Assembly (NCBI GenBank): GCA_963697275.1
Contig: CAVONF010000003.1
Coordinates: 68,028-132,027, forward strand
Source of the DNA: an uncultured Chloroflexia bacterium
Lineage (GTDB): Bacteria; Chloroflexota; Limnocylindria; Limnocylindrales; CSP1-4
Length of the DNA stretch: 64,000 nucleotides
Direction: 5' to 3'
The notes under the pieces are model-generated. The model made no database searches. It was not told the origin of the DNA and saw nothing but the letters and a program-made list of their open reading frames with translations. This document shows, piece by piece, positions 1 to 64,000 of this stretch; position 1 is the first letter of the stretch, and every line of letters begins with the position of its first letter. A program made the translations under genes and the position numbers.

Positions 1-293
1 AACATGCCGCCCGGGTCCGCCTCACCAGCGTCGGCGAGCACGTCGATGACGATGCGCTGGGCACCGACGGGCAGGACGCTGGGGCCGTGTTCGCGCTCGG
101 TCCTCGTGCGCAGGTCGAAGACGGTGCGTATCCCGAGGTCGGCCAGCCATCGCGCCGTGCCGGCATCAGGATCGCCCGGGACCGCCGAGCGGTACAGCAG
201 ACCCCTTCGCACGCGCAGGCCGCCGGGGACGCGGTGGCCGCCGATGTCCCGGAAGTTGGGCGGGGCGGGGGCAGCGGGCCGGGTCACGGTCAT
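1..293 (-). CDS. protein-tyrosine phosphatase-like protein, N-terminal part (gene runs off the window start)
   Basis: Absent from the ORF track because it has no stop in the window. The minus-strand ATG at 293 gives MTVTRPAAPAPPNFRDIGGHRVPGGLRVRRGLLYRSAVPGD..LADLGIRTVFDLRTRTERE. The NFRDxGG, LYRS and V.DLR motifs are typical of bacterial Y_phosphatase3-type enzymes. Confidence 0.55.
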   Translation of the reverse strand, partial: MTVTRPAAPAPPNFRDIGGHRVPGGLRVRRGLLYRSAVPGDPDAGTARWLADLGIRTVFDLRTRTEREHGPSVLPVGAQRIVIDVLADAGEADPGGM

Positions 294-393
294 CTCGAAG
301 GCAGTCTAGAGCGCCGCTGTGGATGGAGCTTCCCGCGGGAGACGGTACGTGGGAGCAACTGCATCCAGGCTCCCAGGGCTGGGCTCGCGCCCT

Positions 394-1074
394 TCAGCCG
401 ATGTGGGGATCGCCCGTGTAGCCTTGTCGGATGTCCGCGAATCGCGCCTGCCAACCTCGCGGGCCCGTGCGCAGTCGCTCGATGTGGCTCGTGACCTCGA
501 CACGCATCGCCCACCAGTAGAGGACGGTGATGACGAGCCCGTAGAGCGCCGCCGCCGCGTCATCGCGCACCAGCAGGAACCACGGTGCCAGGAGCAGTGT
601 CCAGCCATCGAAGGCGATGAGCCGATCGGCCAGGAGCAGGCCGATGCCGATGCCCAACGGGATGACCACGAGCAACGCCAGGGGATCCACCACCAGCAGG
701 CCACCCAGCATCGGTGACACCCCGAATCCGCCCCGGAAGCGATGCCACAGGGGCCAGATGTGGCCGACCACGCTGAAGGTGGCAGCCACCAGGTACGCCG
801 GCTCGTCGGGGTACAGCAGTCGGAAGACCGCCGTGACGGCGGCGGCCTTGCCGATGTCGAGGAGCGAGACCAGCAGCCCCCAGCGCCGGCCGGCCCTGAC
901 CGAGACGCTCGTCGCGGAGACGCCGCTGACCTCGACGTGGCCAGCTCCCTCGTGGAACTGCAGCCGGGCCATCTGCAGGTCGTCTCCCCGGGCGACCCAT
1001 CTCCCGACCATCCGGGCGAACGAGATCGAGCCCACCAGGTACCCGCTGATCGCCGCCAGCAGCAGCAGGGTCAT
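394..1074 (-). CDS. plsY: glycerol-3-phosphate acyltransferase PlsY
   Basis: 226-aa multi-TM ORF. The N-terminus ISGYLVGSISFARMVG and the central VVGHIWPLWHRFRGGFGV match PlsY family motifs. Confidence 0.85.
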   Translation of the reverse strand: MTLLLLAAISGYLVGSISFARMVGRWVARGDDLQMARLQFHEGAGHVEVSGVSATSVSVRAGRRWGLLVSLLDIGKAAAVTAVFRLLYPDEPAYLVAATFSVVGHIWPLWHRFRGGFGVSPMLGGLLVVDPLALLVVIPLGIGIGLLLADRLIAFDGWTLLLAPWFLLVRDDAAAALYGLVITVLYWWAMRVEVTSHIERLRTGPRGWQARFADIRQGYTGDPHIG

Positions 1075-1077
1075 CGG

Positions 1078-4667: not shown

Positions 4668-5751
<1,084 letters not shown>

Positions 5752-5752
<1 letters not shown>

Positions 5753-6604
5753 CAGCCCTTGACCGCTCCTTCCACGAAGCCCTTGACGATGAAGCGCCGG
5801 AAGATGATGGCCAGCAGCACCACCGGGATGCTGGCCAGCACCGCCGCCGCGAGCATCTCACCGTAGAGCGTCTGGTACTGCCCGGAGAACTCGGCGATGG
5901 CGATGGGCGCGGTCTTGATGTCGACCCGCGTGAGGATGATGGCGAAGAAGAACTCGTTCCAGGCCTCGATGAAGGCGAAGACGCCGGCCGCGAACAGCGC
6001 CGGCAGCGAGATGGGCAGGACGACCAGCCGGAAGGTCTGGAAGGTGCTGGCACCGTCGACGGCCGCGGCGCGCTCCAGCTGCGGCGGGATGGACTCGAAG
6101 AAGCCCTTGAGGATCCAGATGACGACCACCAGCGTGAAGGACAGGTAGGTCATCGACAGCGCCGAGGTAGGTGTCGACCAGGCGCAGCTGGCTGAAGACG
6201 ATGAAGAGCGGGATGGCGATGACGATGCCCGGGAACATCTGCGTGGCCAGCACGGCCAGCAGGATCTTGTTGGCGCCCGGCACCCGAAGTCGGGCCAGGG
6301 CGTAGGCGGCCGCGGATCCCAGCGACCAGCGACAGCGACGCGGTGAGCGTGGCCACGACGGCCGAATCGAAGAGCGCGTCCGGCAGGTTGCCCCGCGTCG
6401 ATCAGCACGTCGACGTAGTTGTCCAGGCGTGAAGTTGGAGAGCGACAGGTCGGGCGGCGTCTGGGTCAGGGCGCTGGTGGGCAGGAGGCTGGTGACGACA
6501 CCCCAGGCGATGGGTCCAGAGCCAGCACCAGGAAGACCGAGCAGCGCGAAGCGCGACACGCCCAGGTGCGACCGAGCGCGCCGCGCGCGAGGCCGCGGGG
6601 TCAT
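5752..6604 (-). pseudogene. sugar ABC transporter permease (MalG/UgpE-like), frame-disrupted
   Basis: The C-terminal half, with the EAA loop ERAAAVDGASTFQTFRLVVLPISLP, is in 5752..6408. The N-terminal TMs (AYALARLRVPGANKILLAVLATQMFPGIVIAIPLFIVF) are in the 5858..6805 frame. The ATG at 6604 overlaps the upstream stop (ATGA). Confidence 0.75.
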
Positions 6605-7550
6605 GCGGTCTCCGCCGGCCCGCCGGCGCGCGGCGCTCGGGGTCGAGGGTCGCGCACGTAGACGATGGCGAGCATGAACATGATGCACGAACAGGACGTT
6701 GGCGATGGCCGCGCCGTAGCCGAGGTCGAGGAAGTTGAAGGTGACCCGCCAGGCCAGGAAGTTGAGGACGACGGTGCCGTCCATCGGCCCGCCCTTGGTC
6801 AGCACGAAGACGAGGTCGAAGACCTTGAGCGCCCAGATCGATCTGCAGCACGACCGCGACCAGGATGCGGCACGCGCAGGCCCGGCAGCGTCACGTGCCG
6901 GAAGCGCGCCCAGGCGCCGGCGCCGTCCACGCGCGCCGCGCGGTACAGGTGCGAGGGCACGTTCTGGAGGCCCGCGAGCAGCAGCAGGGTGATGAAGGGG
7001 ATGGCCTTCCAGGCATCCGCGATGAGCATCATGTTCAGCGCCAGGAACGGATCACCCAGCCAGACGACCTTCTGGTCGATGAGCCCCAGCTGCAGCAGGA
7101 TCGTGTTGAGGATGCCGTAGTTGGCGTTGTAGATCCACTTCCAGAGCACGGCGTTGGCGACCGGCGCCAGGGCCCAGGGGATGAGCAGGACGACCAGGAA
7201 GAAGCCGTTGCGGCCGGACGGGCTGGTTGAGCAGCAGCGCCACCGCCAGGCTGATGACGATGACGGCGATGACCTCGACGAAGGTGAAGTAGAGCGAGTT
7301 GCGCAGCGCGATGCGCGAAGGTCGGGTCGGCCAGCATGCGCTCGTAGTTGGCGAGGCCGATCCACTCGCTGGTGACGCCGCCACCGGCGATGGTGGCGTC
7401 CTGGAAGCCCAGGAGCAGCGAGGCCGCGATGGGGTAGGCCAGGACGCCGAGCAGCACCAGGAGCGCCGGCGCCACCAGCCACGAGGCCGGTACGGCGACG
7501 GCGCCCCTCGAAGCTGCTGGAGAGTCAGGCCGCTCGGTCCCGGCCCCCAC
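6601..7550 (-). pseudogene. sugar ABC transporter permease (MalF/UgpA-like), frame-disrupted
   Basis: The pieces WLVAPALLVLLGVLAYPIAASLLLGF (7035..7550), FTFVEVIAVIVISLAVALLLN (7052..7630), LLIPWALAPVANAVLWKWIYN..RAARVDGAGAWARFRHVTLP (6799..7482) and GGPMDGTVVLNFLAWRVTFNFLDLGYGAA (5858..6805) lie in changing frames. Confidence 0.75.
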
Positions 7551-7565
7551 CCTGGGCCGGACCGC

Positions 7566-8899
7566 TCAGGCACGCCGCGCGACGATCGCGCTGACCTGCT
7601 CGGACATGTTGGCGATCGTGGTGGCCGCATCCTGCTGCCCCGCCAGGGCCTTCTGGATCTCCGTGCTGATAGCGATGGTGACCTCGTTGAAGTCCGGGGT
7701 CACGTAGCTGTCGTACGGATACTGGGCCTGCTCGAGCACGACCTTGGCGTTGGCCGACTTCTCCTGCACCTCGGGGTCGTTGAGGACCGAGAGGCGGATG
7801 GGCAGCCAGCCGGTGTCGATGGACTGGCTCTTCTGCACCGCCGGATCGAGGTAGAACTCGATGAGCTTGCGAGCCAGCTCCGGGTCGGCGCTGGTCCTGG
7901 TGATGGTGTAGGCATCCGTGCCGTCGATCGAGGCCGTGCCGGCCGGACCGGCCGGGTTGACCGCCGCACCGACCTGGCCGGCGATGGGAGGTGTCCGGGT
8001 CATTGGCCGGCACCCACATGAACGGCCAGTTCAGCATCATCGCGGCGTTGCCGTCGGTGAACACGTTGGTGGCGTCGTTGATGCCCACGTAGGTGATCGA
8101 GCCCGGGTCGGTGAACGGCATCAGGTCCATCATCATCTGCAGCGAGTCGACGCCGGCCTCGTTGTTGAAGTCCGGCTGGCCGTTCTCGTCGTACAGCCGG
8201 CCGCCGGCCTGCTGGAGGAAGACGAACCAGTAGGTGGCCACGCCGCCGATGCCGGCCGTCTCGCCGTAGTTGAGCACCCAGCCGTACTTGCCGTCCTTGG
8301 TGAGCTGCTCGGCGATGCCCAGCAGCTCGGCCCAGTCCTTGGGCGGCGCCGTGATGCCCTCGGCGTCGAACATGGCCTTGTTGTAGAACGTCGTCAGCAG
8401 CGAGAGCGTGAAGACCACGCCCAGCTTCTGGCCGTCCCAGGTGACCGTCGAGAAGCTGGAGGCGTGGCAGGTCCGCGACGAGGCCGGCGGGCAGGTCATC
8501 CACGAAGGGCAGCAGGAAGTCTGGCGAACTCGGGCACCCAGCCGGACATGTAGACGACGTCGTGGGTGTGCACGCCGGAGGCGAAGTTGGCCGCCATCTT
8601 GTCGTGCAGCTGCGGCCAGGGCACGTCCTCGTAGCCGACGCTTGACCTTGTTGGCCGCCTGCCAGGCCTCGAAGGCGTCGTTGGTCGCCTGCGAGTAGGT
8701 GGCGTCGGGCACGCCCGGAGGGGTCGGGTCCGGCGCGGCGGGAACGAGGGCGCTCAGCGTGGTCTCGTCCTGGCCCAGGGCCGTCGCCCACGCGGGCAGC
8801 ATGCCCGCAGCGGTCAGGCCAGCTGCCGCGGCGCCGCTCCGCTTGAGGAACGAGCGCCGGGAGAAGCCCGCCAGGGGTGTAGATGCGTCGTGGCGTCAT
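7566..8899 (-). pseudogene. extracellular solute-binding protein (family 1, sugar), frame-disrupted
   Basis: A Tat/lipoprotein-like N-terminus and typical SBP_bac_1 segments (WDGQKLGVVFTLSLLTTFYNKAMFDAEGI, GKYGWVLNYGETAGIGG, YPYDSYVTPDFNEVTIAISTEIQKALAG) are split between 8000..8899, 7525..8802 and 7566..8003. AAGGAGGAG precedes the ATG at 8899. Confidence 0.75.
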
Positions 8900-15130: not shown

Positions 15131-16281
15131 ATGACAGCACCCCAGCCGCCCGCCGCGACGATGGTCGCGCCCCCGCCGGTGCCGGTCGAGGACGTGACGC
15201 GCTGGCACGCCGCCATCGCCGCCGAGCTGCGCGAGGCCTTCGAGGCCTGCCTGCCGGGGCCACGCTTCACGCTCGGTCCGCAGCTGCGCGCCTTCGAGGC
15301 CGAGTTCGCGGCCTACTGCGGGGCCACGGCGGGTATCGGCATCAGCTCGGGCACCGCGGCCCTGACCCTGGCCCTGCGCGCCCTCGGGGTGGGCCCCGGC
15401 GACGAGGTCATCACCGTGCCCAACACGTACGTGGCCACGGTCTTCGCGATCACCTACACCGGCGCCACCCCGGTCTTCGTCGACGTCGACCCCGCCACCG
15501 CCAACCTCGACCCGGCGCGCCTCGCGGCGGCCCTCACCGAGCGCACCCGGGCGATCATCCCGGTGCACCTCTACGGGGCCTGCGTCGACATCGACGCGGT
15601 CCGCGCCGCGGCCCCGGGCGTGCCCATCCTCGAGGATGCCGCCCATGCCCACGGCGCCACCTACGGCGAGCGGCCGGCCGGCTCCCTCGGCGAGCTGGCG
15701 GCCTTCTCCTTCTACCCCGCCAAGGTCATGGGCGCGCTCGGGGACGGCGGCATCGTGGTGACCTCGGACCCGGCGCTCGAGGCGCGGCTGCGGCAGCTGC
15801 GCTACATGGGCCAGACGACGACGAAGCACGAGCACCTCGTGCTCGGCTACCAGGAGCGCCTCGACGAGCTGCAGGCGGCCTTCCTGCGCGTCAAGCTGCG
15901 CCACCTCGAGGACCAGGTCGCGGGCCGTCGCCGCGTCGCGGCGCGCTACCGCGAGCTGCTCGCCGGGACCCCGCTCGAGCTGCCCGCCCACGACCCCACC
16001 GGGCGCCACGTCTACTACATGTACACGGTGCTGGCGCCCCGAGCGCGAGGCCCTGCGGGCCCATCTCGACGCGGCCGGCATCGCCACCCAGCTCATCTAC
16101 CCGAAGCTCGTGCCCGACCAGGGCGCCTATGCCAGCCACCCCTGGCGCGCCGCCGATGAGCTCGCGGTGGCCCGCTCGCTCGTGCCGCGCCTGCTCTGCC
16201 TGCCCATGTTCGCGGAGCTGACCGACCCCGAGATCGAGCGCGTCGGCGTCGCCGATCCGCGACTTCTACGGCGCGGACTGA
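15131..16281 (+). pseudogene. DegT/DnrJ/EryC1/StrS family sugar aminotransferase, about two frame changes near the 3' end
   Basis: GISSGTAALTLALRALGVGPGDEVI, EDAAHAHGA and FSFYPAKVMGALGDGG are in 15131..16159. The C-terminus ALRAHLDAAGIATQLIYPKLVPDQGAY is in the 16110 frame. The natural-looking end SPIRDFYGAD-stop at 16279-16281 is in a third frame. Confidence 0.8.
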
Positions 16282-16282
16282 G

Positions 16283-17506
16283 GTGCGCTTCGTCATCCTC
16301 GGCGGATCCGGCTCGGCGACGCCGGAGCTCGTCGATGCGCTGGCGGCCTGGCCCGGCGGCATCGAGCGGCGCCCGCCGCTCCAGGTCGTCCTCGTCTCGC
16401 GCTCGGCAGAGCGACTCGGACTGGTGGCCTCGGAGATGCGCCGCCGGTGCCGCTGGCCTGCCGGGCGCCCCGATCGAGGTCGTGGCGGAGACCGACCTGG
16501 GCGCGCTCTCGACGGGGCCGACGTGGTCCTCAACGCGGTGCGCGTCGGTGGCCTCACGGCCCGGGCCTTCGACGAGATCGTTCCCGCAGGCGCGCGGCAT
16601 CCCGGGGGAGGAGACCATCGGCCCAGGCGGCTTCGCGAACGCGCTGCGCACGGTGCCGGTGGCGACGCGACTGTGGGCGGAGGTCGCGCGGCGCTGCGCC
16701 GGAGGCACTCGCCATCAACCTCACCAATCCTTCCGGCATCGTGGTCGCAGCTGTCGAGCGCGAGCTCTCGGGCTGCGGGTCTTCTCGGTCTGCGATTCGC
16801 CGGTCACCTTCTGTCGCGCCATCGCGAGCCGGCTGGGACAGCCGGACGGGGACATCCGCGCTCGCTACCTGGGCCTGAACCACGTGGGCTGGTGGGTCCC
16901 GCGCAGCGACACCGAACTGGAGGCCACCGCGGACCTGGCGAGCGGCCAGGACGTCGAGGCGGTCCGGGTCCAGCGCGCGCTGGGTGCGCCATACGTCCGC
17001 TACTACGTGCATCCCGAGCGCATCCTCGCCTCCCAGCTGTCGGCCGGCGAGGTCCGGGCCCAGCAGCTGCAACGGCTCGAGGCAGCCCTGCTGGCGGGCT
17101 ATTCGAGCGGGGCTGCGGGGCTGCCGCGCCGCGGCGCCGTCTGGTACGGCAGCGCCGTGCTGCCGCTGGTGGATGCCTGGTTCAACGGCTCATCGGAGAT
17201 CCTCACCATCGGAGCCCGCGCAACGACGGACGCATCCCGGGCCTGCCCGACGCTGTCATCACCGAGGGGCCGGTGCGCTTCGAGCGACCCCGGCAGCTGG
17301 AGCCGCTGGACGTGCCGGACCTGCCCCCGCTGCCGGCGGCCATCCTCGCGGCCCACGCGGCGTACGAGATGCTCACCGTCGAGGCGACGCGACCGGAGGC
17401 CACCCGCGAAGACCGCCTCCGGGCGCTGATGGCCAACCCGCTGGTGCGCTCCTTCGACCAGGCCGACGAGCTGGCCGACGACATCGAGTCCGGCTCCCCG
17501 CACTAG
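16283..17506 (+). pseudogene. glycoside hydrolase family 4-like NAD-dependent enzyme, multiply frame-disrupted
   Basis: MRFVILGGSGSATPELV (Rossmann), GIPGEETIGPGGFANALRTVP, INLTNPSGIV, SVCDSPV, YLGLNHVGWW and the C-terminus RALMANPLV alternate between the 16283, 16110 and 16447 ORF frames (at least five changes). Confidence 0.7.
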
Positions 17507-20234: not shown

Positions 20235-20430
20235 GGTGCTCGCACCTCCTGCCCTGCATCGTAGCCCCTGCGGGCCATGACCATCGGATGCGGCGGCGGC
20301 GCGAGGGCGCTCCGATGCGCGGTCCACCCCGCCGACAGACCCCGAACGGCACCCGAGACCGGCCACCCACCGGGCTGCGATGAGCCGGCAGGGACCGACC
20401 GCGCCGGCTGGGCGCGATGGGAAGCAGGCG

Positions 20431-21911
20431 ATGGGCGAAGGGGCGACGCCATCGAGACGACCGAGCGGGGAGACATCCGCCTGGGTACACCGACTGCCCT
20501 GTCTGGAGCAGGCACGTCACTATCGCCGCGCCTGGCTGGCGCGGGATCTGCTGCGCCGGCCTCGCGCTCACGGGTATCCTCGTTCCGACGGGCATGGCCT
20601 ATGCGGAGGCCTCCGGTCTACCAGCCATCACCGGCCTCTACGCCACCATCGTGCCGCTGCTGGCCTATGCCGTGCTGGGTCCCTCCCGTCTGCTGGGGCC
20701 GGATCCTCCCTGGTCCCGCTCATCCTGGCCGCGCTGGCGCCGTTCGCGATGCTGGGCTCCGCGGCACGCATCGAGCATGCCGCGCTGCTCGGGATCATGG
20801 TGGGGGTCCTCATGTGGCCATGGGCCTGCCGCGCCTCGGCTTCATTCGCCGATCTCATCTCGATGCCGGTCCGCGAAGGCTGCAGCAGCGGGAGTTGGGC
20901 CGCGAAGAAGATGACGGCGATGCCGACCAGGTATCCCCGCTGCTTCCGGCCGCAGTCAGCCTCATGCTCGTGACCGCTGCCGACACCGTCATCATCGCGC
21001 GCATCTTCGCGGCCAGGCACAGCTACCGCTCCTCACCCGACCAGGAGCTGGTGGCGCTGGGCGGCGCCGACGTCGCTGCCGGCTTCTTCTCGGGCTACCC
21101 CATCAGCTCGAGCTCATCGCGAACCGCCGTGGCCGAGGCCGCCCGACAGAAGACCCAGCTGGTCGGCGTCGTCGGCGCGCTCGCGACCACGACGATGCTG
21201 GTGTGGGCGCCCGGACCGCTGGCAGCACTCCCGGATTCCGCGCTAGCCGCCGTGGTCATCGCCGCAGCCATCGGCCTCATCGTGCTGTCGGCCTGGCGGC
21301 GCCGGACCTGGCGGCGCAGCGAGTTCCTCGTCGCACTCGTGACCCTGCTGGGTGTGCCCGTCCTGAGAGTCGTGGAGTGCATCCTGGCTGCCGTGGTGCT
21401 CTCCCTGCTGGCCTCCCCGTGCCGGGCCTGGTGGCCCCACGACGCCGTGCTCGGTCGCGAGACGGGCCTGAAGGGCTAGCACGACCTGACCTTCGATCCC
21501 GCTGCCCGTCGCATCCCGGGCCTGGTCCGCTACCGCCTCGATGCACCGCTGTCGTTCTTCAACGCCGATCCCTTCAGGGAGCGCATCCTCGACGTCATCT
21601 CCGAGGTTGACCCGCCGGCGCGCTGGGTGGTGGTGACAGCCGCCCCCACCACCGACGTCGACGCCGCCGCCGCCGAACACCTGGGCGGGTTGCTCGACGA
21701 GCTCGAGGGCCGCTCCCTGACACTCGCCTTCGCGAAGATGAAGGACCCGGTCAAGCAGCGGCTGCGGACTTGCGGCCTGTTCGAGCGCGTCGGGGAGGAG
21801 CGCTTCCTCGCCACGCTGGGGACGGCCGTGGACGGCTACCTGACCACGACCGGGACCGACTGGGTCGACTGGGAGGAGCAACGGCAGGAGGACGTCGCCG
21901 ACGCGTCATGA
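20431..21911 (+). pseudogene. SulP family anion transporter with C-terminal STAS domain, heavily disrupted (frame changes, probable internal loss and a small inverted segment)
   Basis: RRAWLARDLL, LTGILVPTGMAYAEASGLPAITGLYATIVPLLAYAVLGPS, SLVPLILAALAPF, PDQELVALGGADVAAGFFSGYPISSSSSRTAV and the STAS part [30 protein letters not shown] are spread over three frames. Confidence 0.75.
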
Positions 21912-21982
21912 CCCCCGGACCGCACCTGAGGGCCCACCGGCCCATCAGGGCGCTCGCGGGGCCGGATACCATCGCGCTCACG

Positions 21983-24739
21983 ATGACCGACATGACCGCC
22001 ACCCCAGCTCCTGTCCAGGACCAGCCCTCAACGCCGTCCCGCCCCGTACGCAGATCCCTGCGGACCTTCTTCAAGCCCAGGTCCGTGGCCTTGATCGGCG
22101 CCACCGAGAAGCCCGGCAGCGTGGGCCGGACCATCCTGTCCAACCTCATCGCCAGCCCCTTCGGCGGGACCGTCTATCCCGTCAACCCCAACCGGCCCAG
22201 TGTGCTGGGCATCCAGAGCCATCCCAACGTGGCCTCGATCCCGGAGCAGGTGGACCTGGCGGTCATCGTGACGCCGCCGGCCAGCATCCCCGGCCTCATC
22301 GCCGAATGCGGCGAGGCCGGCGTACCCACGGCGGTGGTCATCTCGGCCGGCTTCAAGGAGGTCGGCGAGGAAGGGGCGGCGCTGGAGCTGCAGGTGGTGG
22401 AGGAGGCGCGCCGCTTCGGCATGCGCGTGGTGGGGCCCAACTGCCTGGGCATCATGAACCCCATCTCCGGGCTGAACGCCACGTTCGCTGCCGGGATGGC
22501 CAGGAAGGGCCGGGTCTCCTTCATCGGCCAGAGCGGTGCGCTCATCACGGCCATCCTCGACTGGAGCCTCCGCGAGCAGGTCGGCTTCAGCTCCATCGTC
22601 TCCCTGGGCTCGATGGCCGATGTGGGCTGGGGTGACCTCATCGACTACCTCGGCGACGATCCCGACACCGACGCCATCGTGCTTTACATGGAGACCGTCG
22701 GCGACGCCCGGGCCTTCCTCTCGGCGGTGCGCGAGGTCGCCCTCGCCAAGCCCATCATCGTCATGAAGCCCGGCCGCTCGGAGGAGGCCTCCAAGGCTGC
22801 TGCCTCGCACACGGGCTCCATGACCGGCTCAGACGAGGTCCTGGACGCCGCGTTCCGGCGCGTCGGCGTCCTGCGCGCCGAGCGCATCTCGGATCTGTTC
22901 TACTTCGCCGAGGTCCTCGGCAAGCAGCCCCTGCCCAGGGGTCCGCGCCTGACCGTGCTCAGCAACGCCGGTGGCCCGGGCGTCATGGCCACGGACGCGC
23001 TCATCCGGGGCGGCGGCAAGCTGGCTCCGGTCTCCGCGGCGACCACGGCCGCGCTCAACGAGGTCCTGCCGCCCACCTGGAGCCACGCCAACCCGATCGA
23101 CATCATCGGCGATGCTCCGCCCGATCGGTACGCCAAGGCCCTGGAGATCCTGGCCAAGGACGAGGACAGCGACGGGCTGCTGGTCATCCTGACCCCGCAG
23201 GCGATGACCGACCCGACCAAGACCGCGCAGCGACTCATCCCCTTCACCATCGACGCCAAGAAGCCGATCATGGCCAGCTGGATGGGTGGCAGCGATGTCG
23301 CCAACGGCGAGCGCATCCTCAGCGAGGCCGGGGTGGCCACCTTCCCGTACCCCGACAGCGCCGCCAAGATGTTCACCGAGCTGGTGCAGTACGGCGAGAA
23401 CCTCAAGTCCCTGTACGAGACGCCCAGCCTGACCCCCGAATGGGTGCGTAGCCCGGAGCGCGGCCGGGCCAGCCAGCTCATCGAGCAGGCGCGCGCGCAG
23501 GGCCGCACGACCCTGTCCGAGCCCGAGTCCAAGGAACTGCTCGATGCCTACGGCATCCCCGTGGCCGAGACCCGAACGGCAGGCAACATGGAGGAGGCGG
23601 TCGCGGCCGCCGATGCCATCGGATACCCGGTCGTCGTCAAGCTGGTCTCCCACACCATCACCCACAAGTCGGACGTGGGCGGCGTGCGTCTGAACCTGCC
23701 CGACGCGGCGGCCGTCCGCGAGGCCTACTCCGCCATCGAGCGCGCCGTTGCCGACAAGCACGGCGCGGAGCACTTCGAGGGTGTCTCGGTCCAGCCCATG
23801 ATCGACCGCGATGGCTACGAGCTCATCATCGGCAGCACGGTGGACCCGCAATTCGGGCCGGTGCTGCTCTTCGGACTTGGTGGCGAGCTGGTGGAGGTCT
23901 TCCAGGACCGTTCCCTGGGGCTGCCGCCGCTGACCACGACACTGGCCCGCCGCATGATGGAGCGGACCAAGGTCTACACCGCCCTCAAGGGCGTGCGTGG
24001 ACGAGCCAGTATCGACATGGCCGCCCTGGAGCAGCTCATGGTCCGCTTCAGCGAGATGGTCGTAGAGCAGCCGGCGATCGCCGAGCTGGACATCAACCCC
24101 CTGCTGGCCTCGCCGCAGCGCCTGCTCGCGCTCGACGCGCGGGTCATCCTGCACCCGCAGGACATCGCCGCTGCGGAGCTGCCCCGCCCGGCCATCCGCC
24201 CCTACCCGCGCAAGTACGCCAGGCCGTGGACCTCACCCGACGGCCGGTCCTGCGTCATCCGCCCCATCCGGCCGGAAGACGAGACCCTGGTGGTGGACTT
24301 CCACGGGCGCCTCTCGGACGAGGCCGTCTACCAGCGCTACTTCACCAAGCTCGGGTACGAGCAGCGCGTGGCCCACGAGCGGCTCGTCCGTGTCTGCTTC
24401 ACCGACTACGATCGCGAGATCGCACTGGTGGCCGAACAGCTCGATCCCGAGACCGGCCGCGCGCGCATCGCCGGCATCGCCCGCATGATCCGGCTGCACA
24501 ACTCCGGCGACGCGGAGTTCTCGCTCATCATCTGCGATGAGTGCCAGGGACAGGGCCTGGGGACGGAGATGCTCAGCCGTCTCGTGGAGGTCGGCCGCGA
24601 AGAGGGCCTCGATCGGCTCGTCGCGGAGATGCTGGCCACCAACGGCAGCATGATCCGCATCTGCCAGGAACTGGGCTTCACCATCAAGGCCGACGAGGGT
24701 GGCGAGACCGTGCAGGCGGAGCTGAACCTGAACGGGTAG
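21983..24739 (+). CDS. bifunctional acetyl-CoA synthetase (ADP-forming)-like / GNAT protein acetyltransferase (Pat-like)
   Basis: Intact ORF. CoA-binding part: [32 protein letters not shown]. An ATP-grasp region follows. C-terminal GNAT: [24 protein letters not shown]. The start is uncertain (ATG at 21908, 21983 or 21992). Confidence 0.8.
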
Positions 24740-24754
24740 CTGCCCGCCGTCGTC

Positions 24755-24774: not shown

Positions 24775-24778
24775 CGGC

Positions 24779-33775: not shown

Positions 33776-33831
33776 CCCTGCCGGATGCGGGGGCAGCGAC
33801 GTCCGGCGGCTTTGCTACGCTGAGGTCATCC

Positions 33832-36633: not shown

Positions 36634-36661
36634 GGCGCAGATCGCTGGACCGACCACCGCG

Positions 36662-38178: not shown

Positions 38179-38184
38179 GCCGCG

Positions 38185-39206: not shown

Positions 39207-39210
39207 AGCC

Positions 39211-40899: not shown

Positions 40900-45165
<4,266 letters not shown>

Positions 45166-45169
<4 letters not shown>

Positions 45170-45958
45170 CGCGATGACCGGCTCGGCGCGCCTGTCGGCG
45201 AGCCGCGACGGCGGCGGTCGAGTCCAGCTCGACCAGGATCAGCTCCCGCACCTGGGCGCCCAGGACAGCGCGGGCCTCGCGATCGAGCCGTCGAGTCGCG
45301 TGATGACGGATGTCCGCGCGAGACAGGCGCGCGATGGTGCTCACGCCGGTGACGCCCCACTTGGTGTGGTCTGCCGATCACGACCAGCCGACCGCCCGTC
45401 TCGATCAGGGCCTGGTTCGTCTCCGCCTCGAGCATGTTGGGGGTGGTGAAGCCGGCGCGCTCGTGCATGCCATGGACGCCCAGGAAGACGAGGTCGACGT
45501 TGACGGCTGCGCAGCGCGTTGACCGCGAACGGCCCCACCAGGGCATCCGACGGGGTGCGCACACCCCCGCTCAGGATGATGGTCTGGTCCGCGCGGCCAC
45601 CGTGGTAGAGGACCTCCGCGGCCGGCACCGAGTTGGTCACCACGGTCAGGCGGGGCACCCGGCCAGCAGGCGGCTGACCTCATAGGTGGTGCGTGCCGGC
45701 CGAGACGTGCCACGGCCATGCCGGGCTCGACCAGTGCTGCGGCCGCGCGCGCGATGGCCACCTTGGCCTCGTGCTCGAGCGTCCGCTTGGTGTCGAAGCC
45801 GGGCTCGTGGACGGCCGAATCTGCGCGAGCAGCGTCGCGCCGCCATGGACCTTCACGCAGGTGGCCCTGTCGCCTCGAGCACGCTCCAGGTCGCGGCGCA
45901 CGGTCATGTCCGAGACGGCCAGCTCCCGCATCAGATCGGCGACGCGGACGCGCGCCAT
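45166..45958 (-). pseudogene. DeoR family transcriptional regulator, multiply frame-disrupted
   Basis: The HTH part VADLMRELAVSDMTVRRDLE is in 45680..45958. The C-terminal sugar-binding pieces (LTVVTNSVPAAEVLY, VDLVFLGVHGMHERAGFTTPNMLEAETNQALIE) are in other frames. Confidence 0.7.
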
Positions 45959-46126
45959 CGGCGCGCAGCCGCTCGAGGATGAAGGCGTGGCGCTGCGGAG
46001 CCAGCACGGTGCCGATGCTCCCCCTGCCTGGGACTTGATCAGTGCTGGGATGTCCAGTCCTGCGCAGTCCCACAGAAGTCAACGTATGCTTAGCGGCATT
46101 CTCCCTGGATATCACCAGATTCGACC

Positions 46127-46156
46127 TTGACATGGCTACGCGAAGCGCGCCACAAT
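46127..46156 (+). promoter_or_regulatory. candidate sigma-70-type promoter (TTGACA-18 nt-CACAAT) in the deoR / ABC divergent region
   Basis: TTGACA is at 46127-46132 and CACAAT at 46151-46156. This is the lowest-GC intergenic stretch of the area. AGGAGGAGG precedes the ATG at 46220. Confidence 0.3.
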
Positions 46157-46219
46157 CCGGGGGAACCGTGTTGGTTTCTGTTGGACCGATGGGAGTCCAC
46201 AGCAATAGGAGGAGGAACC

Positions 46220-47513
46220 ATGGCGTTCCCTGAGTCCCGCACCCGCGGCGGGCGACGGTCATGGCGACCGCGCTGGCCACGGCAGCGCTGCTCTTCTCGA
46301 GCATCGGCGTCGCGGCACAGGACACGAGCACCACCCTCGGCTCGAACGAGAGCGACGAGGTCCCGAAGCACGGCGGTCGCACAACATCGTCAACTACTGC
46401 CAGGAGCAGGCCGGCATCGATGTCACGGTCAACGTCAACGACCACAACACCTTCCAGAACCAGATCAGCGCCTATCTGCAGGGCACGCCGGACGACATCG
46501 TCAAGTGGTTCGCCGGCAACCGCCTGCGCTTCTTCGCGGCCCAGGGCCTGCTCGCGCCGATCAACGACGTCTGGGACAGAGGTCCATGCAGTACCAGACC
46601 GAGGGCCTCAAGGACGGCCTCCACGGGCGACGACGGCAACCAGTACTTCGTGCCCGGTCTACAACTACCCTGGGTGGTGATGTACCGCAAGAGCGTCTGG
46701 GACGAGAAGGGCTACACCGTGCCCACGACCATGGAGGAGTTCAAGGCCCTGGGCGACCAGATGATCGCCGACGGCCTGATCCCGCTGGCCCTTGGCGACC
46801 AGGACGGCTGGCCGGCCATGGGCACGTTCGACATCCTGAACATGCGCCAGAACGGCTACGACTTCCACATCGGCCTGATGGAGGGCCGCGAGCAGTGGTC
46901 CGACCCGCGCGTCAAGACGGTCTTCGAGATCTGGCGCGACGACGTCCTGCCGTACACGCAGGAGGGCGCGCCGGCCGCACGTGGCAGGATGCCGCCAAGG
47001 CGGCGCTCGTCGACAAGACCGCGGGCATGTACTTCCTGGGCACCTTCGCCGCTGAGCAGGCCGCGGTCGAGGACATCCCCGACATCGGCTTCTTCCCCTG
47101 GCCCGACGCTGGGCACCGAGTTCGACGCCGAGAACGCCATCGACGCGCCGATCGACGGCTTCATGCTCAGCGCCAACCCCAAGAACCCCGAGGCCGCCAA
47201 GGCCTTCCTGAAGTGCGTCGCCACGCCTGAGGCGCAGCTCGCCTACGTGCTGACGCCGGGCATCGGCAGCGTGGCGGTCTCGCCGCTGGCCGACACCGAG
47301 CGGCTACAACACGCTCCAGGCAGCCTCGGCCGAGGTCCTCAAGAACGCCGGCAACATCGCGCAGTTCCTGGACCGGGATGCACGCGCCGACTTCGCCGGT
47401 CCGTCCGGCATGCAGGGCTTCCTGCTCAGCTTCCTGACCGACCCGGACCAGGACCTCGACGCCTTCCTGGGCGGCATCCAGGCCTACTACGACTCGCTTC
47501 CGCCGGAGGCTGA
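46220..47513 (+). pseudogene. sugar ABC transporter substrate-binding protein, multiply frame-disrupted
   Basis: A signal peptide ATALATAALLFSSIGVAAQ, then NQISAYLQGTPDDIVKWFAGNRL, PWVVMYRKSVWDEKGYTVPTTMEEFKALGDQMIADGLIPLALGDQDGWPAMGTFD and LSANPKNPEAAKAFLK lie in several frames (the 46127, 46261, 46650 and 47410 ORFs). The 3' end is approximate. Confidence 0.75.
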
Positions 47514-47619
47514 TCGACGTGATGACCCTCCAGTCCTGACACGGACCGGCAGGACCTGGCTGCGACCCCCGTCCTGCGCCACGCCGGACGGGGGTCGCAC
47601 ACATGCGGGAGGAGAGCGG

Positions 47620-48728
47620 ATGACAGTCGCTGCCGCTCGCGGCAACCCGGTCGTCCGGATCGTCCTGAGCCTGCTTGCCATCGCGCGTCGGCGTGGTCGC
47701 GCTCGCTGGTGCTCGGCTACGGCGCTGCTGGCGTTCCTCATCGTGCCGCCGGTCGAGGTGGTCACGGTCTCGGCCGTCGTCGTCACCGCGCTGGTCGTGC
47801 TTGGCCGTGACCGCGGTCGTCGTGCGCTCCAACCGGTCGGCCGCACTCTCGCGGCGCGACAAGATCACGCTCGGGCTGATGGTCGGCATCCCCACGTCCA
47901 TCCTGACCATCTTCATCCTCGTGCCCGCTGGTGGCATCGTTGACGCTGTCGCTCACCAGCTGGAACGGGATCGGCGGCCTGGACTCGCATCCAGTTCGTC
48001 GGCCTCAAGAACTACATCGACCTGCACCAGGTCTACAAGCCCTTCTACCCGGCACTGCTGCACAACCTCATCTGGCTGCTCTTCTTCATCTTCATCGCCA
48101 CGCCGCTGGGCATGTTCTTCGCCGTCCTGCTGGACAAGAACATCCGGGGCACGCGCTTCTACCAGAGCGCGCTGTACATGCCGGTCGTGCTCTCGCTGGC
48201 CATCGTCGGCTTCATCTGGCAGCTCATCTATGCGCCGGAGCAGGGCCTGCTCAACAACATCCTGGGCACGAACACGCCAGGGCAACCTCATCAGCTGGCT
48301 GGGTGATCCGAACATCAACCTGTGGGCCGTCCTGGTCGCCGCCAGCTGGCGCCACGTCGGCTACGTGATGGTGCTCTACCTGGCCGGCCTCAAGGCCGTC
48401 GACCCGACGCTGCGTGAGGCCGCCTCGATCGACGGCGCCAACGAGCGTCAGACCTTCTTCCGCGTCGTCTTCCCGGTGCTGAAGCCCATCAACATCGTGG
48501 TCATCGTCATCACGGTCATCGAGTCGCTGCGGGCGTTCGACCTGGCCTTCATCGTCAACAAGGGCCTCAACGGCCTGGAGCTGCTGTCCACGCTGGTCAC
48601 CAACAACATCATCGGTGAGACCAGCCGCATCGGCTTCGGCTCGGCCATCGCGGTCGTGCTGCTCGCTGCTCTCGGTCGTGCCCATCGTCATCTACCTGAG
48701 CCGCGCCCTGCGGGAGGACAACGCATGA
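47620..48728 (+). pseudogene. sugar ABC transporter permease (MalF-like), frame-disrupted
   Basis: GGGAGGAGAG lies upstream of the ATG at 47620. The pieces LTSWNGIGG, MFFAVLLDKNIRGTRFYQSALYMPVVLSLAIVGFIWQLIY and SWRHVGYVMVLYLAGLKAVDPTLREAASIDGANERQTFFRVVFPVLKP lie in different frames. Confidence 0.75.
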
Positions 48729-49651
48729 CCGCCGCAGCCTCACGCCCAGCGCCGTCGGCGCGCAACACGCGGACGGACCTGCGACGGGCCGCACTGCACG
48801 CGTTCCTCATCGCCATGGCGATCCTCTGGCTCCTGCCGCTTGCCTTCGCGGTGTACACCAGCCTGCGTCCACGCGAGGAGACCGACGCCCTCGGCTACCT
48901 GTCGCTGCCGCCGCACGACCGCTCAACCTGGACAACTACATCAACGCCTGGGACCAGGTCCGAGCTGGTGCGCTACTTCCTCAACACGCTCGTCATCGTC
49001 GTCCCGGCGGTGCTGCTGGTGCTCTTCCTGGCCTCGATGATGGCCTTCGCCGTGTCGCGCTACAGCTGGCGCTTCAACCTCGTCTTCCTGCTGCTCTTCA
49101 CGGCCGCGAACCTGCTGCCGCCGCAGGTCATCATCACGCCGCTCTACCGCATCTTCCTGCGGCTCTGGCTGCCCGACGGACGTCGGGGTGGCGGGGTTCC
49201 CGTCGGACAACGGGCTCTTCTACGACCAGTACATCGGCATCATCGCCATCCACGTGGCCTTCCAGCTGGGCTTCTGCACGTTCGTGCTCTCCAACTACAT
49301 GAAGACCATCCCACGCGAGCTCAACGAGGCCGCCGTCGTGGATGGCGCGTCGATCTGGAAGACCTATCGGTCGGTCATCATGCCGCTGACGCGGCCGGCC
49401 CTGGCGGCGCTGGCAACGCTCCAGGTGACGTGGGTCTACAACGACTTCTTCTGGGCCCTGGTCCTCATGATCGGCAGGGCTCCAAGATGCCCATCACGTC
49501 CGCGCTCAACAATCTCAAGGGCCAGTTCTTCACCGACTACAACCTGCTCGCTGCGGGCGCGGTGCTGGTGGCGATACCCACGCTCATCGTGTTCTTCGCG
49601 CTGCAGAAGCAGTTCATCAGCGGCCTGACGCTGGGCTCGACCAAGGGGTAG
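48725..49651 (+). pseudogene. sugar ABC transporter permease (MalG-like), frame-disrupted
   Basis: ATGA overlap with the upstream permease. The pieces LHAFLIAMAILWLLPLAFAVYTSLRP, NTLVIVVPAVLLVLFLASMMAFAVSRY, NEAAVVDGASIWKTYRSVIMPLTRPAL and LLAAGAVLVAIPTLIVFFALQKQFISGLTLGSTKG lie in more than one frame. Confidence 0.75.
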
Positions 49652-50051
49652 CTCTGTCGCACCTGGCCGGTCGCACCTGGTCGGTCGCGCCTGGGAGCGC
49701 GCGTGCACGCGACGGCGCCAGCCCCAGGGTCCCAGCCGTCACCAGGGCGGAACCGAGATGTGCCGCTCGTCGCTGGCCCGGTCGAGCGGCGGATCGACCT
49801 CGCGGTTCCTGTCACCCATGCAGCGGCGGACTGGCAGGCAGACAGCGGCATCCAGCCGGCCACTCGCGATAGGTCCAGACAGGCGGAAGCATGCCCGTCC
49901 ACGCTCAGGAGCGGGCCGCCGCTGAGGCGACCCGACCGAAACCGCGCCCAAGGCGGCGCGCAAGGCTGTCGAGTAGTCCGGGGGTGACTGGGTGACAGGA
50001 ACGATACGGCGGACCGCCGTCCCAGCACCGGCGATCGGGCCGCTCAGTCGG

Positions 50052-51241
<1,190 letters not shown>

Positions 51242-51349
51242 GGGCCCGATGGTACGGCCGATCAGGGCGGCCCGCTGGCCTCTCGTGGTACGGTTTCGCG
51301 GTCGTGGATCGACCGTCGTCGCCGTGGCGCCCGATCCGGGCGTCCAGGC

Positions 51350-52312
51350 ATGCTGCTCTGTGCGGTATTGGCCGGGGTGCTGATCGTGCCCGGGTCGACC
51401 GGCGCAGCCGCGGGCGACGATGCCCGGGCCGCCGCGCGCCTCGCAGCCGAGCCCGCCAAGGCCGGGTTCCGCGTCGGCAAGTGGGAGCTCCAGCAGGTGA
51501 CCTGGAAGCAGCTCCACTTCACCGGGGGCGCACCCCTGCCCGTCAAGACCGTCGGGCCGAAGGATGACAAGGGCATCTCCCTGCGACCCCTGGGGCCGGG
51601 CAAGTCACTCGTCTACAACCCGACCGTGCTCGCCCAGCAGGGCATGAAGCGGCTCGACACGTGGCAGCAGACGGGCAAGTCCGTGCACCTGCGCTACGCC
51701 CGCAAGCTCGTGCGCAAGCTCGACGAGCTGGCCGTCGGCAACCGCAAGCTGCGCTGGCAGCCACATGACTACCCGCGTGGCGGCAATGGCGTGGGCTGGG
51801 TGAACTCGAACTCACATGGCCTGGTGCTCTCGTTCCTGAGCCGTTTCCACCGCCTCACCGGGTCCGCGCGCAGCCTGGAGGGCGCGCGGGCCATGCTGGC
51901 CGCGTTCGGGGCGCGCAAGGGGGAGCGGCGCTGGTTCAGCGTGGTCACGCCGTCGCGCCACATCTGGTTCGAACACTGGCCCGGTGGGAGATATGCCCAC
52001 ACCCTCAATGCCCACATGAACGCCGCTCTTCGGCCTCTACGACTACTGGCAGCTGACCGGATCAGCCAAGGCCAGGCGCTACTTCCTGGGCGGCGCGCAG
52101 ACCGTCCGCGCCAAGCTGCACAAGTTCCGTCGCGAGGGCAAGCTCTCGCGCTACAGCCTCAGCGGCACGAGCGGCTCGCTGCACTACCACCACACGCACA
52201 TCTGGCAGCTGCGGCTGCTGGCGCGCATGACCGGCGATCGCTGGTTCGCGAAGCAGGCACAGCTGTTCAAGCAGGACGAGCGCGCCTGGCGCGCCGCCGG
52301 TCGCCCCGACTG
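51350..52312 (+). pseudogene. secreted D-glucuronyl C5-epimerase C-terminal-domain-like protein, one frame change near 52030
   Basis: Signal peptide [46 protein letters not shown].., HTLNAHMNA then (next frame) LFGLYDYWQLTGSAKARRYF..LSRYSL..HYHHTHIWQLRLLARMTGDRWF resembles the C5-epimerase C-terminal domain pattern. Confidence 0.55.
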
Positions 52313-52767: not shown

Positions 52768-54831
52768 GTGACCGACCAGGGGCGCGAGACCTACTTCCGC
52801 CCGGACATCGAGGGTCTGCGCGCCGTCGCCATCGGCGCGGTGCTGCTGTACCACGCCGGCGTGCCCGGCGCCGACGGCGGCTTCGTCGGCGTCGACGTCT
52901 TCTTCGTCATCTCCGGCTTCCTCATCACCGGACTGCTGGTCCGCGAGTGGTCCACGCACGGCCGCATCGACCTCGTGGCCTTCTACGCGCGACGCCTCCG
53001 GCGTCTGCTGCCGGCGGCGTTGCTGGCCATCGCCGTCACCACGCTGGCCTCCTGGCTGGTGCTGTCGAGCCTGCGCTTCCCGGCTGTGGCCGGCGATGCC
53101 GCCGCGGCTGCGCTGTACGTCTCCAACATCCGCTTCGCCGCCAACGCCATCGACTACCTCGGCAGCGAGGTCGCGCCATCACCGCTGCTGCACTTCTGGT
53201 CGCTGGGCGTCGAGGAGCAGTTCTATCTCTTCTGGCCGCTCATCATCCTGCTCTCGCTGCGCCTGATGGCGCAGCGCCGCCTGGGTCTCCTCATCGGCGC
53301 CATGGCCGTCGTCTCGTTCTGGCTGGGCCTCATCTGGACCGACCTGGCGGCACCCTGGGCGTTCTTCTCGCTGCCCACGCGGGCCTGGCAGCTGGGGACC
53401 GGCGCGCTCATCGCCATCGGGGTCCTGCGCCTGCCGGGCCGGACGCCGCACGTCGCTGGCATCGCTGGCCGTGTGGCTCGGTCTGGGCCTCATCGCTGCG
53501 GCGCATCGTCGTCATCGGCCCGGGCACGCCGTATCCGGGAACGGCCGCCCTCATCCCGGTCATCGGCACCGCGCTCGTGATCATCGGCGGCAGCGACCGG
53601 ACCTCGCTGCCGTCGCGCCTCCTGGCGCTGTCGGTCCCGCGCTGGATCGGACGCATCTCCTACTCCCTGTACCTGTGGCACTGGCCCATCCTGGTGCTGG
53701 TGCCGCTGGCGCTGGGCATCGAGAGCCTGGCCCTGAACCTGGTGCTGGTCGGCGTCGCCGTGGCCATCGCGGCGGCAAGCACGGAGCTCATCGAGGTGCC
53801 CATCCGGCAGGGTCGCCTGCTGCCCCTCGCCGCCGCGTGCCAGCGTCGTCACGGCGGTGTCGGCCTCGGTGCGTGGTGGCGGCGGGAGCCGTCACCGCTG
53901 GCGCCATCGTCCGTGGCCCTGGCACGACTCCCGTCGTCGCCGATGGATCGACCATCCGCGCCGGCGCAGCTCCCGGAGGCGGTCCGCACGGGGCCAGTGC
54001 CGGCGGACCTGACGCCGACGCTGGCACAGGCCTACTACGACCTGCCGAGCGGCTACGGCGATGGGTGCCACCTCGACTTCCCCGAGGTCGAGCCACCCGA
54101 GTGTACCTACGGACCCGCCGACGCCACGACGCCCGTGCTGCTGCTCGGCGATTCGCACGCACAGCAGTGGCTGCCGGCCCTGGAGCGGCTCGCGGATGAG
54201 CGGGGCTGGCGATTGCGAGCCATCACCAAGGGCGCCTGCCCGATGGTCGAAGCGACGGTGTGGAACTACCCACTGAAGCGCGCCTACCGTGAGTGCGACG
54301 AGTGGCGCGAGCGGGCCCTGAGGCTCATCGAGGAGGACGAGCCGCAGCTGGTGCTCCTGGCCGCGGCGGACATGTACGACCTGGTCGACGAGCAGGGTGG
54401 GCTCATCAGGGACGGTCCGGACGGCGAGGCCGCGGAGGCTGCCGCCTGGGATGCCGGGTTGGCGGACTACCTGGCGCAGGTCGCCGAGCGCGCTCCGCGC
54501 GTGGTCCTCCTGGCCGATACGCCACGGGTCGGCTACGACCCGGCGGAGTGCCTCGCCACGAGCGCCGGCATCGAGGCCTGCGACACGCAGCAGCGAGCGC
54601 ATGGTCGATGACGCCTACCGTGAGCGGGAGGCTGCCGCCGCCGCGGAAGCCGGGGTGGGACTCATCTCCGCGACCGACTGGCTCTGCCCGCAGGAGGACT
54701 GTCCGCTCGTGCGTGGTCCGTTCCTCGTGTATCGTGACCAGCACCATCTGACAGCCACCTTCGCCGCGCAGCTCGCGAGCCAGTTGGGCGCGGCGCTCGA
54801 TGCCGTGACTGGGGGTGACCTTGCCCGATAA
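52768..54831 (+). pseudogene. acyltransferase-3 (OafA/YrhL-type O-acetyltransferase) fused to a C-terminal SGNH domain, several frame changes
   Basis: AT3 part: RPDIEGLRAVAIGAVLLYHAG, VDVFFVISGFLIT, LHFWSLGVEEQFYLFWP, GRISYSLYLWHWP. SGNH part: VLLLGDSHAQQWLPALE..KGACP..VLLADTP..YRDQHHLTATFA. The segments are in the 52768, 53471, 52947 and 54397 frames. Confidence 0.8.
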
Positions 54832-54854
54832 CCACTCGCCCGTGCGTCCCAGGT

Positions 54855-56016: not shown

Positions 56017-56405
56017 GCCGGCTCTCCCGGCGCGGTGCCCCGGCCGTGCTCCTGCTGATGGTGCTGCTGGGGACGCTGGCCGCCACCCCGGTGCTGGCTG
56101 CCGACAGCGATGGTGATGGTCTGCGCGATGGCTTCGAGGCCCGCTGGGGCGTGACCAGTCCGACCAGCGCCGACAGCGATGGCGACGGCGTCATCGATGC
56201 CGCCGAGGACAGCGACGGCGACCGTCTCTCCGATCTGGGGGAGCAGCGCTTCCGCAGTGACCCCGGCGCCCGCGACAGCGACGGCGACGGGCGCCCAGAC
56301 GGCCGCGAGGACCACGACCGGGACGGGCGCAGCAACGCCCGTGAGCAGGATCAGCGGCCGCTGCCGGCCGGGCTCCGGCCGTCGCTGGCCAGGGCGGCGG
56401 CGGAC
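56011..56405 (+). repeat. 395-bp direct repeat, copy 2
   Basis: See copy 1. The offset is 1156 nt. Confidence 0.9.
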
Positions 56406-58438: not shown

Positions 58439-58443
58439 TCCCG

Positions 58444-62056: not shown

Positions 62057-62095
62057 CGTCCCGCCGAATGCGGCGTAGGTGTCGCACGACGACGA

Positions 62096-63195: not shown

Positions 63196-63562
63196 GCGCC
63201 ATGGGACACCGGCGTGAGCTCCTCCGTTGGAGTCATGCCGTGGATGCTGCGGCGACGGGGCCGTTGCTGCAAGTCTGCGCACTCCCGTCGCGGGCGCCCA
63301 GTCCAACTAGATCCCCCTTACAATCATGGCCGCAGTATCGGCTTGAACACGCATACCCACGGGGCATGTCTGCCTGCCCGAACGGACCTCTAGCGGCCCC
63401 TCTGGCGGGCAGCCGAAAGGAAACGGAAGTCCTTGGCCAGCGTGGTGGAATCCCATGGTTGGTGTCACAGCGCGTCATCATCGCGTCCGATTCCTAGCTC
63501 GCCAGGAGTAGCACCGGGGCCGCCTAATCTCATTCGGTGACTGCTTCGAGCATAGCCTCCCG

Positions 63563-63766
63563 ATGGGAGAGGGGACTCGACTCGTCTTCCTCGGGGCTTC
63601 GCTGCCCATGGTCATCGAGACCACGCCGGTCCACGGGCAGAACTCCTTCGATGACTTCCTCGCCGAGGTCCAGCCCGTCATCGACTCACCGAACTTCGAC
63701 GCAGGCGCGTGGGGCCTCCCAAGGTACGCGGCAGTCTGGAGCGGTGGCCGAAACGCCGGCGTCTGA
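63563..63766 (+). CDS. small hypothetical protein
   Basis: 67-aa ORF with balanced, non-shadow composition (VIETTPVHGQNSFDDFLAEVQPVIDSPNFDAGAWG). There is no clear RBS and I recognise no family. Confidence 0.25.
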   Translation: MGEGTRLVFLGASLPMVIETTPVHGQNSFDDFLAEVQPVIDSPNFDAGAWGLPRYAAVWSGGRNAGV

Positions 63767-63875
63767 CGATCACGCCTGACGCTCGACTTCGCCACTGCCG
63801 CCGACGCCAGCACGTCGCCGAGGCCGCCTCGTGACCAATCGCACGTCCTCTGGTATCGTTCGTCGTCTCAGGCAC

Positions 63876-64000
63876 CTAGTGTCTCGATTCGCTGATCGCT
63901 GGCGGCTTGCGGACCGCCTTGGCGAGGATTCTGGTCGGCGGTCTTGACCCAGGTGAAGGGGCTGGCACCCTCGTTCCATCGGCGGGTGAAGGCGTCGATC
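63876..64000 (-). mobile_element. IS630 family transposase, C-terminal end (continues beyond the window), with an apparent 1-nt insertion
   Basis: The minus strand reads IDAFTRRWNEGASPFTWVKTADQ, then goes out of frame. Removing one A in cagAAtcc restores ILAKAVRKPPAISESRH-stop (stop at 63876-63878), the usual IS630 transposase C-terminus. Confidence 0.6.

Follow-up and report, generated by a model that had tools for sequence, protein, structure and literature searches.

Long-read assemblies can retain single-base insertions and deletions (indels), which, as Watson and Warr reportedly pointed out in 2019, truncate the predicted proteins, and length-ratio tests of the IDEEL type check assemblies for proteins shortened in this way. 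Known errors of this kind fragment genes by single-base indels, leave a corrected translation of ortholog length and bring no nonsense mutations, and the damage depends on coverage: in a Nanopore-only workflow for metagenome-assembled genomes (MAGs) from soil, based on metaFlye and one round of Medaka, the lower-coverage MAGs had reduced coding density (PMC12313526). Here we describe a stretch of 64,000 nucleotides (nt) of contig CAVONF010000003.1 from an uncultured Chloroflexia bacterium, hereafter the window, in which genes for glycerol and galactose use, sugar uptake and some peptidases can be read only by repeated frame changes and lie beside genes that are fully intact. The damage resembles known long-read assembly errors in the first three of these features and probably in the dependence on coverage, and differs from them in being strongly patchy within one contig. 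Judged from the sequence, the broken genes are very probably an assembly artefact, that is, patchy low-quality consensus in a long-read metagenome assembly.

We segmented the window with a codon-usage Viterbi model trained on its own long open frames, and aligned to it the intact orthologs of syntenic relatives (contigs L001, L002, L083, L084, L085, L091 and L123) using our own protein-to-DNA aligner, which permits frameshifts and in-frame stops at a cost. The segmentation separated two classes of sequence, long segments held in a single frame and segments in which the frame changes on the same strand every 50-400 nt, and the frameshift-aware alignment yielded a total of 132 frameshifts, with event positions that agreed between three independent references to within 3-9 nt. 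An earlier note, based on reading the sequence by eye, had described many genes as readable only through repeated frame changes. Both methods bear this out, although the counts given there were low; glpK, for example, is indeed broken, but by 9 frameshifts and not by about eight. The broken stretches, which we call patches A to F, and the features that bear directly on them are as follows, with frameshift counts in brackets.

5476..8874, minus strand: patch D, within sugar ABC operon 1, with the first ~93 codons of its MalK-like ABC ATPase, two permeases and a solute-binding protein (14 or more frame changes)
16037..17231, plus strand: patch E, the final ~70 codons of a DegT/DnrJ/EryC1 aminotransferase gene plus most of a GH4-like gene (~9 frame changes)
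18606, plus strand: lone +1 insertion close to the 3' end of the gene for a luciferase-like monooxygenase (1, the only frameshift in this gene)
20395..20934, plus strand: patch F, the 5' half of SulP (5 frameshift indels)
21477-21479, plus strand: TAG stop codon in SulP, read as TAT in three sister contigs; no other in-frame stop was found, and the sequence around it is clean
21908..24736, plus strand: Pat-like acetyl-CoA synthetase/GNAT gene, no frameshift against a 90% identical short-read ortholog
33438..36720, plus strand: patch A, the last third of PepMA2 (peptidase_MA_2; 4), TldD (7), PmbA (7) and MFS at codon ~20 (1); 19 events, 5.8 per kilobase (kb)
36721..38585, plus strand: clean block between patches A and B, the rest of MFS and the first 134 codons of the asparaginase
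38586..52174, both strands: patch B, asparaginase (4), amidohydrolase (6-9), glpK (9), glpD (15), galT (12-14), DeoR at 45164-46007 (9-13), sugar ABC operon 2 (10 + 8 + 4), galK (12) and a C5-epimerase-like gene (4)
53450..54595, plus strand: patch C, within an OafA-like acyltransferase-SGNH gene (5 in the OafA-like part and 1 in the SGNH part; 6 events)

Sugar ABC operon 1, the DegT C-terminus and the GH4-like gene were without a close reference; the one contig considered for operon 1 (L090) is only 24-35% identical and too distant for exact counts. These genes were judged by Pfam continuity together with the codon model, from which the extents of patches D and E are also derived. Pfam domains continue across the frame junctions of their stitched translations: ABC_tran, OB_MalK, TOBE_2 and SBP_bac_1 bridge the junctions in patch D, and the DegT profile (positions 3-356 of 360) and both GH4 domains bridge those in patch E. 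This continuity confirms that frameshifts are present in these genes as well.

The aligner found zero frameshifts in the genes for Pat, the PEP-utilizing enzyme, SBP5, hemH, AEC, SnoaL, the 2-hydroxyacid dehydrogenase and the sulfotransferase, 12.4 kb in all, which include genes as long as Pat (2829 nt), the PEP-utilizing enzyme (~2.5 kb) and SBP5 (1680 nt). Apart from SnoaL, all of these had been singled out as clean in the earlier note, as had SGNH paralogs 2 and 3, which proved to be single fused open reading frames (ORFs; 56013-57191 and 57188-58438). Its further argument that a uniform indel rate would not suffice also held: such a rate was rejected with a chi-square of 151 (25 degrees of freedom, p = 6e-20; 110 events in 31 kb of assessed coding sequence), and under it the probability of observing zero events in the 12.4 kb of clean units is 7e-20.

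The borders between the two classes follow position along the contig and not the genes. Patch edges lie inside genes, namely MFS, PepMA2, the ATPase, DegT, SulP and OafA. In MFS, a single shift at codon ~20, beside the broken PmbA, is followed by 1455 nt of clean sequence, and PepMA2 is clean for its first 720 nt and then carries 4 shifts beside the broken TldD. Damage to the MalK-like ATPase is confined to the first 93 codons, beside the broken permease, the remaining 263 codons (4686-5475) being clean. In DegT it is confined to the last 70 codons, beside the broken GH4 gene, whose own C-terminus (17246-17500) is clean again and aligns without frameshift to a C-terminal fragment from L085. 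The first 680 nt of the OafA-like gene and the SGNH paralogs downstream of it are likewise clean. The events of patch A were placed in agreement by the L001 and L083 references, and the probability that the block at 36721-38585 would contain no event at the patch rate is 1e-6. Patch B, with 101 events at 7.4 per kb, shows a spacing whose coefficient of variation is 1.00, as for a Poisson process, and its local rate runs from 3 to 14, 2, 9 and 3 per kb across genes, strands and operons. Because the borders cut genes, the spacing is Poisson-like and the clean gaps are improbable at the patch rate, the pattern fits a position-level property, such as read depth, and not gene-level selection. The apparent sugar and glycerol theme of the damage arises because genes of the same function cluster, so that a patch on the kilobase scale covers one functional cluster. 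We also considered errors tied to extreme GC content. The window has a GC content of 70% throughout, and this candidate was ruled out because the patches contain coding sequence from either extreme, the richest in GC (38-44 kb, 0.75) as well as the poorest (46-50 kb, 0.66).

Other signs of decay are missing from the patches. The aligner found no in-frame stop in any patch gene. In this codon usage, about 2.5-2.9% of random substitutions create a stop; at three substitutions per indel, one would expect 8-9 stops, with a probability of 1e-4 to 3e-4 of finding none, and at ten per indel this probability would fall below 1e-11. Once corrected, the broken proteins have ortholog-like lengths and 65-86% identity to their orthologs, similar to the clean genes. 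The corrected glpK, for instance, encodes 501 amino acids (aa) and is 82% identical to an ortholog of 500 aa, and a search with the stitched GlpK returned hundreds of glycerol kinases of 500 aa at ~80% identity over 99% of the query. The earlier note had called the damage almost purely indel and the catalytic motifs intact; the first description holds, the SulP stop being the only in-frame stop, and all five motifs that it quoted are found at the expected genes.

We further analyzed the spectrum and the sequence context of the indels. Among the first 99 events, 74 were +1, 22 were -1 and 3 were +/-2, so that ~75% were single-base insertions; alignment to L123 gave 65 insertions and 17 deletions, and the overall ratio of insertions to deletions was about 3.4 to 1. 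No enrichment at homopolymers was found, the mean longest run within 5 nt of the sites being 2.36 compared with 2.45 at random positions, which rules out homopolymer-linked error. For 47 isolated insertions, every nearby single-base deletion was tried and the outcome scored against the ortholog. As a result, 17 of the 47 could be placed uniquely, with an inserted base that differs from both of its neighbors (examples are atggCgcag, ggcgAcgca and gtgaTcggc), and of these 17, 11 fell at codon position 2 and 4 at position 3. Spontaneous indels in bacteria arise mostly by slippage in runs and repeats, and bacterial pseudogenes show a deletion bias. The spectrum of the window is the opposite of what slippage and deletion bias lead one to expect.

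To place these events among relatives, we compared the window with contigs of the same gene neighborhood. The closest named relatives of the GlpK, Pat and permease proteins are metagenome-assembled Chloroflexota or Candidatus Limnocylindrales; for the PEP-utilizing enzyme, no match closer than 40% identity was found among species-representative genomes. In contig L001, the genes for SGNH, OafA, C5-epimerase, galK, DeoR, galT, glpD, glpK, amidohydrolase, asparaginase, MFS, PmbA, TldD, peptidase_MA_2 and SBP5 are syntenic and intact, as is the run from DeoR to MFS in L002. L083 carries the luciferase, AEC, SnoaL, Pat, 2-hydroxyacid dehydrogenase, sulfotransferase, SBP5, PepMA2, TldD, PmbA, MFS and asparaginase genes. 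The short-read Logan contigs L123 and L124 have the exact MFS-to-galK order of the window, sugar ABC operon 2 included, again intact. Short-read Logan contigs of 88-92% nucleotide identity contain intact genes for the luciferase-like protein (293 aa, intact in four sister contigs), AEC, SulP (594 aa), Pat, the 2-hydroxyacid dehydrogenase and the sulfotransferase. In sum, intact orthologs were found in L001, L002, L083, L084, L085-88, L091-93, L123/L124 and the JGI contigs L095-L118. The earlier note had proposed a comparison with the orthologs of the closest complete genomes, and none of the indels of the window was common to any of more than ten relatives, which are 80-95% identical and not the same strain; the frameshifts are thus missing from independent assemblies, short-read ones included. 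At least 8 JGI contigs covering TldD, PmbA and MFS each expose the same uncompensated, window-specific indels, for example at ~36214, 36240, 36318, 36458, 36582 and 36725.

The same class of damage was found in a second contig, in other genes. L089 (ENA ERZ25039603, contig_38052; 42.9 kb, from the same ENA sample as L001) is 94.5% identical at the nucleotide level to window positions 20934-26649 (5.7 kb). Its name is of the Flye style ('contig_N'), as are those of L001 and L083, and it is from this name that we take it to be a long-read assembly. Compared with short-read orthologs, L089:5500-15700 contains 41 frameshifts (25 of +1 and 13 of -1) and no stops, distributed over luciferase (11), sulfotransferase (9), AEC (7), SulP (6), Pat (5), 2-hydroxyacid dehydrogenase (2) and SnoaL (1), genes that are clean or nearly clean in the window. 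That two close contigs show the same damage and the same insertion bias in different genes is consistent with a technical cause and hardly compatible with selection.

SulP is the place where something more than indels has occurred. At 20881-20938, the window diverges from L089, L091 and L092: a 52-nt segment is inverted (20883-20933) and the next ~300 nt are missing. The indel-rich part of the gene ends exactly at this inversion and deletion, and the 3' half (20934-21902) contains no frameshift indels. The inversion with its loss looks like a bad assembly join, and a real rearrangement is also possible. The TAG codon, which lies in the clean 3' half, is possibly a true nonsense mutation. SulP is absent from L083 and L084 and variably present among the relatives; besides carrying technical noise, it may be a true pseudogene or be undergoing loss in this lineage.

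Under patchy consensus error, stretches of 0.5 to 13.6 kb would rest on scarce or poorly polished long reads and would retain single-base indel errors at a rate of about 0.6-0.7%, mostly spurious extra bases, and the stretches between them would be well supported and error-free. Each error would shift the frame, leaving genes in bad stretches apparently shattered and those in good stretches perfect, and the bad stretches would seem function-selective because the genes of a pathway cluster. Low local read depth or failed polishing would be the cause that we infer, together with a long-read platform and assembler; patches that extend over kilobases, with rates that change in steps, would match changes in long-read depth where individual reads start and end. 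Of the two explanations offered in the earlier note, it is this one that the patch borders, the spectrum and L089 support, with the exception of the homopolymer location it had considered, for which no enrichment appeared. Several points weigh on the other side. The artefact is inferred from the sequence alone. The closest relatives over the patches are only about 90-95% identical at the nucleotide level. Nanopore consensus errors are usually linked to homopolymers, whereas the errors of the window are biased to insertions and not tied to such runs; this departure from the textbook pattern leaves the platform uncertain. The SulP nonsense substitution lies in clean sequence, so that some lesions in the window may have a non-technical origin. 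Finally, in the trio with L002, the window-branch ratios were 1.14-1.42 in broken genes and 0.81 in one clean control gene. We attribute the longer branch to mistranslated junction residues, and its size is as expected from these; in the three-taxon comparison as a whole, in which garbled junction residues are a confounder and clean control genes number only one or two, the window branch was not clearly longer for the broken genes.

The biological alternative put forward in the earlier note was real and very recent pseudogenization, in which glycerol and galactose use, two sugar uptake systems and some peptidases have been abandoned and selection keeps the other genes. The functional coherence of the broken set (glp, gal, two sugar ABC operons and DeoR regulators) speaks for it, as do the nonsense codon and rearrangement that SulP carries besides its indels and the variable presence of SulP among relatives, and the juxtaposition of frameshifted metabolic genes with intact neighbors is like the reductive decay of Mycobacterium leprae and of recent host-restricted bacteria. 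In such decay, however, frameshifts occur together with nonsense codons and larger deletions, amino-acid change is elevated, deletions prevail and the process acts gene by gene, none of which is seen in the window except possibly in SulP. In the patches, neither a stop codon nor a clear excess of substitutions accompanies the 9-15 frameshifts per gene, the TAG at 21477 being the exception in the window; insertions prevail by about 3-4 to 1, against the deletion bias of bacterial pseudogenes; and the inserted bases lie outside homopolymers and short repeats and are often unlike their neighbors. Genes that one would be forced to class as either selected or dead contain patch borders, neighboring genes within one cluster differ four-fold in rate, the sister contig L089 has the same damage in other genes, Pat and AEC among them, and no lesion was shared with a sister lineage in any relative examined. 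With more than 120 frameshifts unaccompanied by stops, functional loss driven by indels is contradicted on all these counts, SulP again being the possible exception, and we regard it as very improbable. It is still harder to credit that the indels are real but stem from a localized burst of error-prone DNA synthesis that added untemplated single bases over kilobase tracts, for example when a sloppy polymerase repaired long single-stranded gaps, and too recently for other mutations to have accrued. If true, a free-living, uncultured relative of Chloroflexota would have undergone an indel shower. Programmed ribosomal frameshifting and transcriptional slippage likewise change the frame within a gene for a conserved protein, but they act at a slippery run, once per gene and at a conserved site; in the window we found up to 15 sites per gene, in non-repetitive sequence and at positions shared with no relative.

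Other technical origins differ from patchy consensus error mainly in how the extra bases would have entered. If two co-occurring strains had been collapsed and their polymorphic sites written twice, with clean blocks where one strain alone contributed, errors would be mostly insertions outside homopolymers, as observed, and relatives of 90-95% identity do occur in several metagenomes, one of them in the same sample as L001. Differences between strains concentrate at third codon positions, but the uniquely placed insertions lie predominantly at position 2, and this analysis gave no support to doubled wobble-site polymorphisms; the deletions, about 20% of the events, would also be unexplained. 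We therefore consider a strain collapse improbable. A hybrid assembly, in which accurate short-read contigs (the clean blocks) were joined by raw or lightly corrected long-read gap-filling (the patches), is a possible but unlikely candidate. It would account for the sharp two-state switch between 0 and about 7 indels per kb and for the structural glitch at one junction, and the insertion-rich, context-free spectrum is like that of older PacBio continuous long reads. Against it, the error rate in patch B varies gradually and is not flat, and the related contigs with Flye-style names (L001, L083 and L089) may be long-read-only.

If patchy consensus error is the correct explanation, the broken genes have no biological significance, and their value is practical, as a caution to those who annotate this genome and as a model case for separating patchy consensus error from gene decay. 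Accepted as it stands, the contig would lead to a wrong metabolic reconstruction, a wrong pseudogene count and wrong claims of sugar and glycerol loss for this genome. Consensus errors in long-read metagenomes can be strongly patchy and, through gene clustering, mimic function-specific decay, and genome-wide averages such as coding density can mask locally unusable sequence. The filters applied here are reusable: the position of patch borders relative to gene borders, the ratio of insertions to deletions, the repeat context, the absence of stops and the contigs of short-read relatives.

Several minor features of the window were also observed. Sugar ABC operon 2 (46220-49648), within patch B, lies between DeoR and galK, as in L123/L124, and is missing from this position in L001 and L002. 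The operon proteins share 85-86% identity with those of L123, whereas the figure for the flanking glp and gal proteins is only 65-75%, and this higher identity suggests a separate history or exchange of the operon.

Near patch C, SGNH paralog 1 consists of two ORFs (54815-55423 and 55420-56016) with a GTGA overlap. L001 has the same split (179 + 220 aa), which suggests that it is a conserved, genuine feature and not an error. In L001:1-3500, the OafA-SGNH gene is called as overlapping pieces of 551 aa and 137 aa, which may be a frameshift error of that contig itself.

Between the 2-hydroxyacid dehydrogenase and sulfotransferase genes, a block of ~1.3 kb (26883-28183) encodes a signal-peptide protein without a Pfam match. 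This block is missing from the close relative L084 and is read in three successive frames, with changes near 27498 and 27776. At the far end of the window, the segment 61910-64000 has a GC content of ~0.64, is mostly non-coding by the codon model and is probably foreign or mobile DNA. A VanY-like peptidase ORF (62295-63272, minus strand) adjoins the AbiEi/AbiEii pair (59801-61367).

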